Shown: positions 40,632 through 46,808 of the stretch, piece by piece
Position numbering within the stretch: the stretch's first letter is position 1
Layout of the letters: the number at the start of each line of letters is the position of its first letter
DNA from: a virus
DNA length: 64,000 bases
IMG/VR virus record: IMGVR_UViG_3300027759_003827
Coordinates: 1 to 64,000 of that record
Strand: one strand, 5' to 3'
Position numbers and translations under genes: made by a program
Notes under the pieces: model-generated
Told to the model about the DNA's origin: nothing
Seen by the model: the letters and a program-made list of their open reading frames with translations, nothing else
Databases searched by the model: none

Positions 40632-41882
40632 TTATATGTTTATTTTAGATCCAAGTGCAAATACGTACATCAATGGAATATCAGGATTAGTACTCATATT
40701 AACTTTTAAATTAATATTTAATTTAAATTTCTTACTAAATCTAATATCTGTTCCAGCACCTGTAAAGAAGGAAACGTTAGCATCGTATGTAGCTTTCTTA
40801 TCTTGTTGACCGAACATTACAGGTGAGGAAATAAGGTATATTTCCGGAGATACTGTTTGTTTTCTACTAACTTGAAAGGGTCTAGTGTAGAAGGCTATGA
40901 TAGAGGGCGATAACATTATCTGAGTACCTGTTAAGATAAGGGAATTTCCACTTAAAGCAAGTCCTGCTACCGCTCCTTTGTTTAGAGGTTTTACAAAGGA
41001 CCATCCGTAGAATATAAACTTATTATCCCAATCTGTTACATAAGTTACACTAGTAGAAGTTACTCCAAATACCTTTCCTTTCTTCATTATAATATCAGAA
41101 GTGCTTCCTCCAATAACTACCTGCTTTAGGTCTGCTCTAACTGAAGTGCTTATTCCGTAACTAAACATACCTTCGTTTAAAGTCTTAGACATATTAACAT
41201 TGAAGGTAGGTACTATCATAGAGCCCATCTGTATTACTGATAAGTCTGCTTTAACGATAGGAGGATTAGCTTTACGTTCTTCTTTTTTCTTTTCTTGTTC
41301 TTTCTTCTTATTTTCAGATTTTTTCTCTGATTTAGATTCAGACTTAGATTCGTTACTTGAACTTTCTGATTTTGTTTCTCTTCCAGAACTCTCCGATGAT
41401 GAGTTTGATGACGACGACTCCCCAGAGGAGGATGAGGATTGGGAAGAAGAGGAGGATGAAGACGAGGTTGAAGAGGATGAGGAAGATATTGAAGTTCCTG
41501 ATGTAGATACGGCTGCTGTAGAAGCAGCACTTGAGCTTGCTGCAGATGCTGCTGATGAAGCTGCTTGAGAGGCAGCATTGCTTGCTGCTTGTGCGGCCTG
41601 TTGTGCCACAGTTGCTACTATTGCTATTGGACATGGTGTTGAGAAGATGTCATTAACCCATTTAGTTACTGTTCCTGATGCAAAGTCGGCATACGTAAAG
41701 ATTCTAGACTTATTTCTAATAAGTACTAATACTCCAGGTTGATTAGATGAGATAGGAACTACTACTGTGTAAACTTTGTTATCACAGGGGTCAATGTAGG
41801 TTTGAACAATATTCTGACCGTTCGCTTTATTAGCGAATATAAACGAAACTGATATTAAGACGGCTAGTATCCATTGTTTCAT
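40632..41882 (-). CDS. exported protein with Ser/Ala-rich linker and probable C-terminal outer-membrane beta-barrel
   Basis: signal peptide ANG-Q, poly-Ser linker, alternating beta-strand pattern ending GSKINI. Confidence 0.65.
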   Translation of the reverse strand: MKQWILAVLISVSFIFANKANGQNIVQTYIDPCDNKVYTVVVPISSNQPGVLVLIRNKSRIFTYADFASGTVTKWVNDIFSTPCPIAIVATVAQQAAQAASNAASQAASSAASAASSSAASTAAVSTSGTSISSSSSSTSSSSSSSSQSSSSSGESSSSNSSSESSGRETKSESSSNESKSESKSEKKSENKKKEQEKKKEERKANPPIVKADLSVIQMGSMIVPTFNVNMSKTLNEGMFSYGISTSVRADLKQVVIGGSTSDIIMKKGKVFGVTSTSVTYVTDWDNKFIFYGWSFVKPLNKGAVAGLALSGNSLILTGTQIMLSPSIIAFYTRPFQVSRKQTVSPEIYLISSPVMFGQQDKKATYDANVSFFTGAGTDIRFSKKFKLNINLKVNMSTNPDIPLMYVFALGSKINI

Positions 41883-42172
41883 TAATTTCTTCTAGAAGGA
41901 CGAGAAGGTAATTGTCTTGGTGGAACAAAACGATGAGTTGGCCTTTGAGGTATCCAGCGTTGTGGTTGATATCTAGGTGTAATCCATCTTTGAATTATAA
42001 TCGGAGTAAACTGTATAGGAGCATATTGATAATCGTAAATTACTCTCTGCTTCCTAACTATTGAATCTTGCGGACTAACGAACACATACTGAACTGGGGT
42101 GCAGCTAGCTATAAACATTGTTATCCACAGTAGTAATATAAATGCTACACAGATTGAAATTATTTTTTTCAT
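41882..42172 (-). CDS. Pro/Arg-rich lipoprotein
   Basis: lipobox IAS-C. Confidence 0.7.
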   Translation of the reverse strand: MKKIISICVAFILLLWITMFIASCTPVQYVFVSPQDSIVRKQRVIYDYQYAPIQFTPIIIQRWITPRYQPQRWIPQRPTHRFVPPRQLPSRPSRRN

Positions 42173-42173
42173 C

Positions 42174-42281
42174 TTACTTTACTTTATTTAAAATTACTTG
42201 ATTAGCTTTCACTAATTCTGCTTTCTTAACGCCAGATTTTTTAGATCTCATTGAACGCTTTTTCTTTGGTGCTGTTCCCAT
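42174..42281 (-). CDS. 35-aa highly basic peptide MGTAPKKKRSMRSKKSGVKKAELVKANQVILNKVK
   Basis: translated by hand; fills the gap exactly. Confidence 0.6.
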   Translation of the reverse strand: MGTAPKKKRSMRSKKSGVKKAELVKANQVILNKVK

Positions 42282-42284
42282 AAT

Positions 42285-44178: not shown

Positions 44179-44179
44179 T

Positions 44180-46291
44180 TTAGAAGTTGTTATATCCTGT
44201 TAATTTAATTTGTACTCTATTTAAATTAATGCCTAGTTGATTACCGTTGATCGCACTAGCATCCATTGTAGATGAAACATTTATAGATGTTAAAATGTCT
44301 ACCCCGTTACCTATTGTTGAGAACTTTAATTTAAATGGAGTAGAAACTCCAGTAATAGCTGTTTTATTATTTTGATCTAAAGCTCCAAACTTAACCTTAC
44401 CGTTCTTAGCGTTTGCAAATATAAACCAAGTATTGGGTAGAGTTGATACTAATTCTTCAAACTTAAGCTTAGTTGGATCATATTCGAACTGAAATTGTAA
44501 GCCTCCTACGTTAGCTCCTTTAGTATCAATTGCGACTGGTATTTCTATATTATTAGATGTTATAGTCGTGTTTGTTAAGTTAACATCTATAGCAGTTATA
44601 TCATAAGGAGTATTAATGAAACTCGTATTTGAAATAGACATATTTTTAAATACAGTATTAGTCTGTAAGCTATTCAAAGCATTTGTTTGAACTGTTGAAG
44701 TTCCGCTAGTAGAAGTTACAACTTGAGATGAATGAGATCTGTTTACATCTCCCCATAACAGGTATTTTAGGTTTAAGAAAGCATTTGTACCTAATACATC
44801 TGTCTTAAAGTAGGTCTTAGGATATGTAACAGTACTCCAGTTTGAAGTTGTTATGCTTCCCCAAGATGAATTAGGGTTCATATCAAAAGTAAACTCTGCT
44901 CTTAATGCATAATCTACACCTCCGTTATTAATATCTCTTATATAGCTTAAATATACAGATGAACCGTCTTTAGCTTTAAGTAAAGTCGAAGGTACTCTAT
45001 ATTGAGCCCATGAAGCATCTTCAGATACATACTCAACTGGACCTGTGTATATGTCAAATAATTGAACACTCTTAACTTTGTTAGGAAGAGTTCCTGTTGG
45101 AAACTTTCTCATATCGATACGTAAAGTACTAAACGTAGTTCCTGGAGTTACATAGCTCCATTCTACCTGTCCGCCTATCGTAGCTACATCTGCTGCTCTC
45201 CAAGTAGGTAAGCTCATCCAGCCGTTTGTACCTGCTACATATCCTACAGGTATCGTCATTAGAGTATCTAGTCCGGCAACTTGACCTAACAGTCTAGGTA
45301 AGTCTCCGCCGTCTATTACCCTATTCCTATTAATGTCTGCAGCATACAGAGATTGGCCTGTATTTAAGTTAGTACCTTTAGTTCCGTCTAGTCCCATAGA
45401 AGTAAATTCGGCTTGTGCTGTAGTAAAGTCGGATATTGTAATAGCTGAATTATAAATTTTATAGATGCTGTCTATACTGTACATTAAAGTAACGTCGTAT
45501 ACTTTATTTGCTGCTAATAGAGATTGATTAATATCTACAGATCCGTCAGATAACACTGAGAATAGTTGACCTTGGTTTGTAACTGTGTCTCTAAATGATA
45601 GCTTTAAATTAGATAAATTATATAAATTAGAATTTAAGTCAACTTTTGCGGTTACATACTTACCGAAGTTCTGATTCATATTAATTTGAGTAGACAGTGG
45701 ACTGTCCATAAATGTTGGAGCTTGAACACCTTGCGCATCCCATCCAGCAACAAAGTTCAATATAACAGGGTTGAATGAATTTGCTGTTGATGCTACCTTT
45801 AATTTAAATCTTACAATTAACATTCTATCGTAAGATGTATAAGGCATTGCCGATGTTGTTGCCCAGGTTAAAGTTGCTCTAAGAATTGCATTAGAACCGT
45901 TAGCATTATACACGTAAGTTGCATTGGAAACATACCTCTGTGTACCGTTTGTATAAGTACTATTTCCTGCGTAAGTATAGCTAGGATAGTTTTGCCAAGA
46001 TAGTTGTATGTTAGAACCAGCAGGGAGTATTCCGCCGTTACCGCCAGTACCTGTATGATTAACTGAAACTACTTCAAAGTTTGTCATATCATACTGCAAA
46101 TCAAACATTAGCTGTCTTGTAGTTGCATCGCTGTTACCGTTTGCTTGAATTATGACGTCAAACTGATCTCCTCTATTAATAGCACCGCCAGTTGTACTAG
46201 CAATAACTCTTGTATCAGAGAATTTAAATTTAATTTGTCCGAAAGATGTTAATCCTACAAACAGTAGGATAAGTGTCAATAAATGTTTCAT
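44180..46291 (-). CDS. exported protein with N- and C-terminal cohesin-like domains and a central dockerin-like motif
   Basis: GDQFDVIIQ..FDLQYD..FEVVSV; AADINRNRVIDGGDL.RLL..VAG; IEIPVAI...VGGLQFQFEYDPTKLKFEE. Confidence 0.75.
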   Translation of the reverse strand: MKHLLTLILLFVGLTSFGQIKFKFSDTRVIASTTGGAINRGDQFDVIIQANGNSDATTRQLMFDLQYDMTNFEVVSVNHTGTGGNGGILPAGSNIQLSWQNYPSYTYAGNSTYTNGTQRYVSNATYVYNANGSNAILRATLTWATTSAMPYTSYDRMLIVRFKLKVASTANSFNPVILNFVAGWDAQGVQAPTFMDSPLSTQINMNQNFGKYVTAKVDLNSNLYNLSNLKLSFRDTVTNQGQLFSVLSDGSVDINQSLLAANKVYDVTLMYSIDSIYKIYNSAITISDFTTAQAEFTSMGLDGTKGTNLNTGQSLYAADINRNRVIDGGDLPRLLGQVAGLDTLMTIPVGYVAGTNGWMSLPTWRAADVATIGGQVEWSYVTPGTTFSTLRIDMRKFPTGTLPNKVKSVQLFDIYTGPVEYVSEDASWAQYRVPSTLLKAKDGSSVYLSYIRDINNGGVDYALRAEFTFDMNPNSSWGSITTSNWSTVTYPKTYFKTDVLGTNAFLNLKYLLWGDVNRSHSSQVVTSTSGTSTVQTNALNSLQTNTVFKNMSISNTSFINTPYDITAIDVNLTNTTITSNNIEIPVAIDTKGANVGGLQFQFEYDPTKLKFEELVSTLPNTWFIFANAKNGKVKFGALDQNNKTAITGVSTPFKLKFSTIGNGVDILTSINVSSTMDASAINGNQLGINLNRVQIKLTGYNNF

Positions 46292-46294
46292 GTC

Positions 46295-46777
46295 TTAAAA
46301 TAATTTAGACATAACCGATACGCATGCTTTTTTTACTGCGTTTCTTTGTACGGTCGAGTTAAACTGACCTCCTTCATTTATTAATAACGTGGATGTACTT
46401 ATTTCTGAGGATCTATCTTCTGTAGTTATAGTCTTTAGTACTTTACCGAATCCGTCAGATAGAGTACCTCTCATCCTTATTACAACTTCACTTTTATCTT
46501 GGTGAAAAACAGAAAATCCTTGTTTTGTCTGTTCTACATCAAAGAAAAAAATCTCTACATCTACAACATAATCTGCATCAAACTTGTCTACAAGACTAAA
46601 CCCCTTATCTTGAAGAGCTTCTTGTAAGACGTTTTTAACGCCAAAAGCTAGGTTTTTATTTCCTGTAAGGGGACCTGCTTTAATATTATTTACTATTGTC
46701 CCAAGGGAGGCTTTAGTTTGAGCCTTTCCTGTAAGACTTAGTAAGAGCGTAACCATAATTAGGAGAAATACCCTCAT
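46295..46777 (-). CDS. exported CsgG/TolB-N-like fold protein
   Basis: signal peptide; GVKNVLQEALQDKGF.LV...ADYVVDVEI; ends AVKKAC, like ALDIAC in the 42285 protein. Confidence 0.6.
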   Translation of the reverse strand: MRVFLLIMVTLLLSLTGKAQTKASLGTIVNNIKAGPLTGNKNLAFGVKNVLQEALQDKGFSLVDKFDADYVVDVEIFFFDVEQTKQGFSVFHQDKSEVVIRMRGTLSDGFGKVLKTITTEDRSSEISTSTLLINEGGQFNSTVQRNAVKKACVSVMSKLF

Positions 46778-46808
46778 TTACGGTTTAAATATAAATAGGA
46801 TATATGTC

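Follow-up and report, generated by a model that had tools for sequence, protein, structure and literature searches.

A conserved cassette of exported proteins in a lake phage of Flavobacterium-type bacteria, with two putative CsgG-type paralogues and a predicted 12-strand outer-membrane barrel

CsgG/CsgF gene clusters have been reported in pelagimyophages of the HTVC008M group, where their function was given as unknown, uptake being regarded as the 'simplest explanation' and 'sibling capture' also being offered (Zaragoza-Solas et al. 2020, PMC7029224), and in the OM43 phage Melnitz, for which control or timing of lysis was proposed (Buchholz et al. 2022, PMC9004378). A related cassette is described here, located at positions 40632-46777 (minus strand) of a 64-kb window, which is the first part of the 88.8-kb IMG/VR virus record IMGVR_UViG_3300027759_003827 (estimated as ~54% complete) and derives from a large lake-water phage of Flavobacterium-type bacteria. 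The published clusters resemble this cassette in that a CsgG-type gene belongs to a small operon of exported hypothetical proteins, placed in a variable genomic region of large aquatic myophages, and in that neither contains genes for fibre subunits. They differ in containing recognisable CsgG and CsgF, whereas the corresponding protein here, p240, has neither a Pfam match nor a lipobox and no CsgF is found, and its partners are a second CsgG-type paralogue, a stalked 12-strand barrel, cohesin proteins and membrane anchors, in phages of Bacteroidota hosts. The original prediction for this DNA considered the system undescribed, and this stands for the Bacteroidota-phage version only: CsgG clusters of phages are already published (PMC7029224, PMC9004378), while literature searches turned up no publication on the Bacteroidota-phage cassette or on the cellular three-gene module discussed below.

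We read the cassette as encoding a ring-plus-barrel export or anchoring device that would display variable binders on the infected cell, an interpretation which we prefer and which nonetheless falls just short of probable. The block consists of nine open reading frames (ORFs) of 160, 703, 117, 103, 80, 73, 240, 96 and 416 aa, hereafter p160 to p416, and one 35-aa ORF. Neighbours are spaced by 1-24 nt, the genes for p96 and p416 overlap by 4 nt, and the 112-nt gap between those for p240 and p96 contains the tenth ORF. Export or membrane features (N-terminal hydrophobic signal, lipobox or membrane segments) are present in nine of the ten products, with signal-peptide-like N-termini in p160, p703, p240 and p416, lipoboxes in p117 (LVAC) and p96 (IASC), and membrane segments in p103, p80 and p73. 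The tight co-directional ten-gene block of the original prediction, with nine products bearing a signal peptide, lipobox or transmembrane segment, two of them lipoproteins and three small membrane proteins, is thus found as announced, the basic 35-aa ORF being the exception regarding export. The products on which the argument mainly turns are:

42285..43007, minus strand: p240, most conserved member of the block, a divergent protein of the CsgG superfamily carrying a type-I signal peptide but no lipobox Cys, assigned from homologue Pfam matches, PDB profile match and predicted fold
46295..46777, minus strand: p160, probable shortened 'B'-type CsgG paralogue with a signal peptide and no lipobox, assigned through a profile chain; closest Pfam family Lipoprotein_16 (YajG)
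43013..43234, minus strand: p73, single-pass membrane anchor with a ~40-residue exported tail, from its membrane segment
40632..41882, minus strand: p416, with signal peptide, ~60-residue N-domain, linker, helix and 12-strand barrel as predicted by the AlphaFold2 (AF2) model and Foldseek
44180..46291, minus strand: p703, secreted protein whose C-terminal cohesin passes the Pfam threshold and whose N-terminal one stays below it, with a single EF-hand-like loop

p240 itself gives no Pfam match at E<=1 and no PHROG or NCBIfam match, and, outside its own viral clusters, the proteins that a protein language model rates as most similar to it belong to CsgG/HfaB clusters (score 0.94, 174-179 shared features). 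An exhaustive search of 50%-identity representatives returned 218 relatives at E<=0.001, and p240 was aligned with 32 mostly full-length ones (alignment A1, 33 sequences). Pfam CsgG is matched by 17 of these 33 sequences (best 1.9e-17) and LpoB by 6, and the A1 profile matches E. coli CsgG at 3.3e-6 over positions 1-184. The AF2 model of p240 (mean predicted local distance difference test score, pLDDT, 86.3; predicted template-modelling score, pTM, 0.78) displays the alpha/beta core and two long beta-hairpins of the CsgG fold, with long strands at residues 135-153, 157-174 and 180-195, and its top PDB matches by Foldseek are CsgG entries (E 4e-7), followed by PelC, FlgT, LptE, GNA1162 and HpaA. 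Since homologue Pfam matches, PDB profile match and predicted fold agree, p240 is assigned, on homology and modelling, to the CsgG superfamily.

The profile alignment also reveals features that depart from the curli channel. The first hairpin of the p240 family is six residues shorter than that of E. coli CsgG, the second hairpin region is left unaligned with the E. coli CsgG profile, the hairpin columns are mostly polar, and the lipobox Cys that most cellular A1 homologues possess is absent from both p240 and p160. For a membrane pore, longer and less polar hairpins than those of p240 would be expected and, the lipobox being absent as well, such a pore is at most hypothetical. By analogy, such short polar hairpins would fit a ring that needs a separate barrel, as in the PelC-PelB and LptE-LptD pairs; PelC forms a ring beneath the PelB barrel, and LptE sits in LptD.

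The second putative paralogue, p160, shows no Pfam CsgG match, and its profile produces only chance-level matches against PDB sequences. Its closest Pfam family, Lipoprotein_16 (PF03923), is reached at 2.4e-4 and 21.3 bits, below the 25-bit cutoff; 26 of the 31 p160 relatives collected from related loci (alignment A2) match it at E<=0.1, and four of ten relatives scanned singly exceed the cutoff (25.9-27.8 bits). YajG, which belongs to this family, is described in the literature as an outer-membrane, possibly surface-exposed lipoprotein. TraT was also considered as the family of p160, being matched by 5 of the 31 relatives (1.4e-4), and was not used, as none of ten re-scanned members matched it. 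The link to CsgG appears through a cellular paralogue named B, represented by nine proteins (alignment A5). The p160 family aligns with B by hhalign at 96.0% probability (E 3.9e-9, 139 columns), without an internal stretch of ~40-50 residues of B, and the B proteins align with A1 at 99.9% (E 4.5e-32), one B protein exceeding the Pfam CsgG cutoff. Because p160 matches B and B matches the CsgG-like family, p160 is classified, from profile comparisons, as a shortened B-type CsgG paralogue. Of the two CsgG-like proteins that had been proposed, p240 is accordingly reached by three routes and p160 by this profile chain as its single route, a direct hhalign comparison between the p160 family and A1 being weak (28 columns, 16% probability).

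In other phages, p73-like and p160-like sequences occur as natural in-frame fusions, of which 13 ORFs of 216-248 aa were recorded (e.g., L075:489-1139, L009:38-685 and L072:436-1083). These fusions suggest that p73 and p160 work together, with the p160 domain on the periplasmic side of the inner membrane.

Cellular counterparts were sought by scanning contigs of genomes and metagenomes with cellular p240 relatives (alignment A4), which provided 2 + 18 loci. Neighbourhoods were examined at 17 of them, three short fragments being left out, and these 17 reduce to 14 without near-duplicates (L087 and L088 being close to L083, and L100 to L084), several of them cut by contig ends. The loci (L083-L100) belong to Cloacimonadota and Acidobacteriota metagenome-assembled genomes (MAGs) and to metagenome contigs. 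They reveal in uncultured bacteria a trio formed by a CsgG-like lipoprotein A (~235 aa), the exported paralogue B (~210 aa) and an outer-membrane-type protein. B adjoins A in 11 distinct loci and the outer-membrane-type protein does so in 5; the latter is exported, measures 272-413 aa and has a porin-like C-terminus that terminates in Arg-Phe. All three are adjacent at L085:137-2808, L090:4923-7230, L095:4357-6576 and L084:3919-5972. The family of this outer-membrane protein has no Pfam match; at the Cloacimonadota locus, the protein following A recalls p416 in its organisation, having an N-domain followed by a linker rich in Lys/Glu and a C-terminal part rich in beta structure. In L083 and L084, genes for large secreted proteins immediately precede the module, as that for p703 does in the phage. 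In the Cloacimonadota MAG (L083:532-6936), these are three large secreted repeat proteins, two of which have C-terminal tails that, by eye, resemble type IX sorting domains.

Regarding p416, the AF2 model, built on 45 sequences, comprises an N-domain at residues 24-84 (pLDDT 64-82), a disordered stretch at 114-204, a helix at 185-203 (pLDDT 41-62) and twelve main strands across residues 209-415 (pLDDT ~75-88), the linker of ~100 residues being Ser-rich and then Lys/Glu-rich. Foldseek places FapF first (E 8.9e-8, template-modelling score on target 0.50-0.63) and BrkA next (1.2e-7), with further matches to the autotransporter barrels of NalP and EspP, to PcoB, KdgM and NanC, and to intimin; in the viral structure library BFVD, phage outer-membrane and autotransporter-type barrels are matched. 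In the model, a helix predicted with low confidence thus leads into a barrel of 12 strands, an architecture known from FapF and autotransporters, and this would fit either a FapF-like arrangement with the N-terminal part in the periplasm or an autotransporter-like one with this part outside. No Pfam family was matched by the whole protein, its barrel part or the 45 relatives, beyond low complexity; the p416 profile gave only low-complexity matches against PDB and Pfam, and the 143 relatives found for the barrel part are all unnamed. PHROG tail-fibre (9e-4) and many NCBIfam matches of p416 were disregarded because they fall on the low-complexity Ser-rich linker. The Ser-linker beta-barrel protein of the original prediction is hence recovered, with FapF and autotransporter beta-domains as its top matches.

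These folds raise two alternatives to a display device. Secretion of a curli- or Fap-like fibre or amyloid, with its subunit among the unassigned proteins and sticky infected cells as the outcome ('sibling capture'), is decidedly unlikely in our estimation. It draws on the best structural matches of p240 and p416 being functional-amyloid channels, CsgG and FapF respectively, and it was published as an idea for pelagimyophages (PMC7029224). FapF is, however, barely ahead of the autotransporter barrels (8.9e-8 vs 1.2e-7), and the p240 hairpins are polar. In addition, CsgA, CsgB, CsgE and CsgF families were matched neither in Pfam at E<=1 nor in NCBIfam by the nine longer proteins, Fap partners gave no family match (Pfam, NCBIfam), and a window-score test against shuffled sequences detected no curlin-like internal repeats and no multi-repeat protein. 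The absence of curlin and CsgE/F noted in the original prediction therefore holds. Only p96 rises above its shuffles among the block proteins, due to a short tandem repeat in its tail (window score 36 vs a shuffle maximum of 28). Alternatively, the barrel, and perhaps p240, might simply let nutrients in through the outer membrane and so sustain replication. The matches of p416 to the substrate-specific 12-strand channels NanC, KdgM and PcoB would agree with this, as does uptake, the 'simplest explanation' advanced for pelagimyophage CsgG (PMC7029224). Such a function would not account for the p416 stalk with its swappable N-domain, for the cohesin and lectin proteins, for the second paralogue or for the anchor, and we give it little credence.

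Conservation of the cassette provides a further line of evidence. p240 has 4422 matches at E<=0.001 in a 90%-clustered protein collection, and used as query it led to 498 confirmed IMG/VR loci, 80 of them being retained. The presence of each partner, counted only where the flank suffices, was as follows:

p103: 63 of 65 loci, 63 on the expected side
p703-like: 54 of 57 loci, 53 on the expected side
p416: 63 of 76 loci, 62 on the expected side
p160: 43 of 57 loci, 42 on the expected side
p80: 32 of 65 loci, 32 on the expected side
p73, separate or fused: 26 of 65 loci, 26 on the expected side
p117: 13 of 57 loci, 13 on the expected side
p96: 8 of 76 loci, 3 on the expected side

The core members are strongly co-conserved in order, and the gene-order conservation across phages that had been suggested as a check is seen, e.g., for p103 (63 of the 63 loci where it is present) and p416 (62 of 63). 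Median identities of the partners across loci range between 31 and 61%; the 85% obtained for p240 is biased upward by its being the locus-selection query.

Comparison with the closest relative, L003, separates steady from changing parts. GroEL, IscU, thioredoxin and the small lipoprotein are 94-98% identical between both phages, and within the cassette identity amounts to 91% for p240, 87% for the p416 barrel, 81% for p160, 59% for p117, and 39% for both p703 and p103, the p416 N-domain not being alignable. Such conservation of p240 and the barrel against divergence of p703, p103, p117 and the p416 N-domain is the pattern expected of exposed, contested parts on a conserved machine. In L010, L016 and L017, conversely, the p416 N-domain is shared (63-66%) and the barrel is not, in the top alignment; taken with L003, this mismatch indicates that the two p416 domains are exchanged independently.

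The core also occurs in a cultured phage. A p240 homologue (52%) was detected in the phage collection in Flavobacterium phage vB_FspM_immuto, a 160-kb Baltic myovirus, where the gene order runs from a NUC-type nuclease through a C-type lectin protein, a hypothetical protein, a cohesin-domain protein and a 103-aa protein to the p240 homologue, and onward to a 474-aa protein, thioredoxin and tRNAs. p103-, p416- (N-part) and p160-like genes are present as well, the p103 homologue adjoining that of p240. Searches of the same collection for near-identical DNA and with the p703 protein returned nothing, and only p240 found immuto.

p703 is modular and fast-evolving, with a median identity of 40% to its relatives. 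Cohesin (PF00963) is matched by the whole protein at 6.5e-10 and 39.8 bits and by its C-terminal part at 29.2 bits, above the cutoff of 24.1, while the N-terminal cohesin reaches 22.7 bits, just below it. The middle part has no Pfam dockerin match at E<=10 and contains a single EF-hand-like loop at residue 319; among the best 120 of its 1054 relatives, Cohesin is the only precomputed domain. Thus, from the cohesin-dockerin-cohesin architecture formerly attributed to p703, the C-terminal cohesin is retained, the N-terminal one lies just under the cutoff and the dockerin is withdrawn.

The display-device reading builds on how the genes are arranged and conserved, on their export signals and homologies, on the folds predicted for two products and on the bacterial trio. 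After Sec export, p240 and p160 would form a ring-shaped oligomer on the inner side of the outer membrane, p160 being held to the inner membrane by p73 or, in other phages, by fusion to a p73-like anchor. Together, this ring and the p416 barrel might form a device for export or anchoring at the outer membrane. This device would place fast-changing binders on the infected cell, namely p703, whose counterparts in relatives are lectin or cohesin proteins, and the swappable N-domain that p416 carries on its Ser-rich stalk. A constant part formed by two CsgG-fold paralogues, the barrel and a bitopic inner-membrane protein would hence carry a variable part formed by binding modules. The purpose would be to alter the surface binding of the infected cell, in its most likely version by masking receptors so that neither other phages nor progeny of the cell itself adsorb, or alternatively by sticking cells together.

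Several observations weigh against such a device: (i) p240 and p160 are devoid of the lipid anchor of their cellular relatives, (ii) the plain 12-strand porins NanC, KdgM and PcoB also match p416, (iii) the helix preceding its barrel is of low confidence, (iv) phage outer-membrane barrels are common in BFVD, so that a barrel alone says little, and (v) the block also includes the holin-like p80. Moreover, the p416 family (alignment A3) and the cellular outer-membrane proteins (alignment A6, 5 sequences) are only weakly related by hhalign (19%, E 1.2e-3, 60 columns at equivalent C-terminal strands), with single-sequence hhalign of p416 against two cellular neighbours giving nothing, and p703 has neither a recognisable outer-membrane sorting signal nor an NCBIfam type IX sorting domain. 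The assembly, topology, cargo, timing and purpose of the device are what we infer from its parts, as are the surface-assembly or secretion system of the original prediction and the roles listed there.

The remaining block products are small:

43825..44178, minus strand: p117, small lipoprotein, lipobox LVAC
43507..43818, minus strand: p103, bitopic membrane protein and core member, membrane segment at 16-34 and Gln/Lys-rich tail
43240..43482, minus strand: p80, small membrane protein whose C-terminus is charged, resembling a holin in its features alone
42174..42281, minus strand: tenth gene, very basic 35-aa ORF (12 K+R, 1 D+E) with no export signal
41882..42172, minus strand: p96, lipoprotein with lipobox IASC and a Pro/Arg/Gln-rich tail

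p117 has only a weak PHROG Cor-like match (0.0098) over its signal region, and p80 matches no Pfam, PHROG or NCBIfam family. The 35-aa ORF is conserved directly after p240 in 34 other loci, with 66-71% identity among the top tblastn rows. Some of these proteins would suit a lysis or lysis-timing module in which p80 acts as holin, p103 and p96 as spanin-like components, and the CsgG-like protein and the barrel perforate or depolarise the envelope. In favour are the small size of p80, its membrane segments and charged C-terminal end, the bitopic nature of p103 and the Pro-rich lipoprotein p96; lysis control is also the role that Buchholz et al. (PMC9004378) proposed for phage CsgG. On the other hand, no holin or spanin family is matched in Pfam, PHROG or NCBIfam, and p80 and p96 are found in just 32 of 65 and 8 of 76 loci, respectively, p240, p103, p703-like and p416 being the constant members. 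The 88.8-kb record contains no match to the immuto endolysin, at its ~54% completeness and with other endolysin families not searched; only 2 of the 80 loci have an endolysin of this type inside their 7-kb flanks, and in immuto itself it is ~8 kb off, beyond the tRNAs. This explanation is consequently considered unlikely, even though some part in lysis may still be argued from the holin-like p80 and the lipoprotein/bitopic pair.

The genomic setting bears on whether these are ordinary virion structural or decoration proteins, the possibility that the original prediction itself recognised as fatal to it. All window genes of at least 90 aa except five are on the minus strand. Upstream of the block are GroES, GroEL, IscU, IscA and an exported Endonuclease_NS nuclease, with DNA polymerase A farther upstream, and downstream of it are two unassigned proteins, thioredoxin, a small lipoprotein and a tRNA region. 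The block is therefore located outside the structural module. Cohesin and Ig-like modules do occur on virions, and the p416 linker has weak PHROG tail-fibre matches (9e-4). These latter fall on its Ser-rich stretch, however, and Sec signals, lipoboxes and a membrane barrel are foreign to virion proteins. Together with the position of the block among GroEL/GroES, IscU/IscA, nuclease, DNA polymerase, thioredoxin and tRNA genes, that is, in a replication and chaperone context, they argue against virion proteins, an explanation which we regard as extremely improbable.

Next to the block, one exported neighbour may be associated with it:

46809..47462, minus strand: exported DNA/RNA non-specific endonuclease, possibly associated, Pfam Endonuclease_NS 7.8e-35, signal-type N-terminus

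An Endonuclease_NS gene is found within the 7-kb flanks, on either side, in 29 of the 80 IMG/VR loci, and in immuto too the nuclease adjoins the cassette. If it spares modified DNA, it could act against incoming foreign or free DNA. The nine cassette proteins and this nuclease gave no match to PADLOC anti-phage models at E<=0.01. IscA- and IscU-like iron-sulfur assembly proteins, GroEL and GroES are encoded immediately upstream of the nuclease (47475-50322, minus strand).

A short motif precedes the block:

46791..46798, minus strand: CTATTTAT motif, 14 nt 5' of the p160 ATG, sole copy within the block

The single motif, of presumed late type, placed ahead of the block at 46790 in the original prediction corresponds to this copy. 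Eight copies of CTATTTAT are present in the window (2351, 12519, 15122, 16753, 18697, 20611, 46791 and 48225), every one on the coding minus strand and at least five of them 7-28 nt 5' of a start codon. Their total count in the window is not above chance, and strand bias and position are what stand out. TATTTAT is, in addition, the top enriched 7-mer of upstream gaps (8 of 32 gaps vs 0.64 expected). CTATTTAT is thus a candidate phage promoter or leader element; scans for sigma-70-type promoters and terminators gave chance-level results only. In one lake metatranscriptome run, 0.29 of the sampled words are contained. Its contigs cover parts of p240, p80/p103, the nuclease, thioredoxin/p111/p145 and GroEL (window 38000-50000), those on p240, p80/p103 and the nuclease at low depth, and some of the run's contigs are identical to the window. 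Such contigs indicate presence in an RNA library only, and are no proof of transcription, nor do the uncovered parts carry any meaning.

A wider proposition follows from the bacterial trio, and we put it forward as possible though rather doubtful: two CsgG-fold paralogues and a 12-strand barrel might constitute a previously unrecognised outer-membrane translocon or anchor of several bacterial phyla, captured by very abundant freshwater Bacteroidota phages to dress cells in exchangeable binders (cohesin, lectin, N-domain). If so, the captured device would control who adsorbs or sticks to the infected cell, and it would alter the host outer membrane in a far more complex way than do the single-lipoprotein exclusion systems of coliphages. 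Given the 4422 matches and 498 IMG/VR loci, activity of the cassette would concern a large share of lake Bacteroidota infections. The trio also points to an outer-membrane machine of bacteria that is not known to have been studied, and the presence of the core in the cultured pair formed by immuto and Flavobacterium sp. LMO8 makes these proposals directly testable.

Among known systems, the CsgG channel (PF03783; 4uv2/4uv3/6l7a) has its fold in common with the p240 model (E 4e-7) and profile homology over residues 1-184, p240 differing from E. coli CsgG by the absence of a lipid anchor, a shorter and mostly polar first hairpin and the lack of curli partners. FapF and type Va autotransporters (5o65/5o68, 3qq2, 1uyn), which pass polypeptide through a 12-strand barrel, resemble p416 as modelled in barrel, helix, long linker and N-domain; p416 differs in having no family membership and a would-be 'passenger' of only ~60 residues. 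Cellulosome cohesins (PF00963) are like the C-terminal domain of p703, above the Pfam threshold, whereas no dockerin is detected in the block and its context is that of an aquatic Bacteroidota phage. With PelC-PelB and LptE-LptD, the cassette has no sequence relation that could be found, and p240 possesses long hairpins that PelC and LptE do not; as in those pairs, a protein of CsgG/LptE fold is encoded beside an outer-membrane barrel, in phages and in bacteria alike, with which it presumably works, perhaps in contact. Finally, the cellular module differs in that A is a lipoprotein, which p240 is not, and in that B is ~50 residues longer than p160, and it is related to the phage cassette in that A, B and the outer-membrane protein stand side by side, with p240 placed by homology in the family of A and p160 homologous to B.

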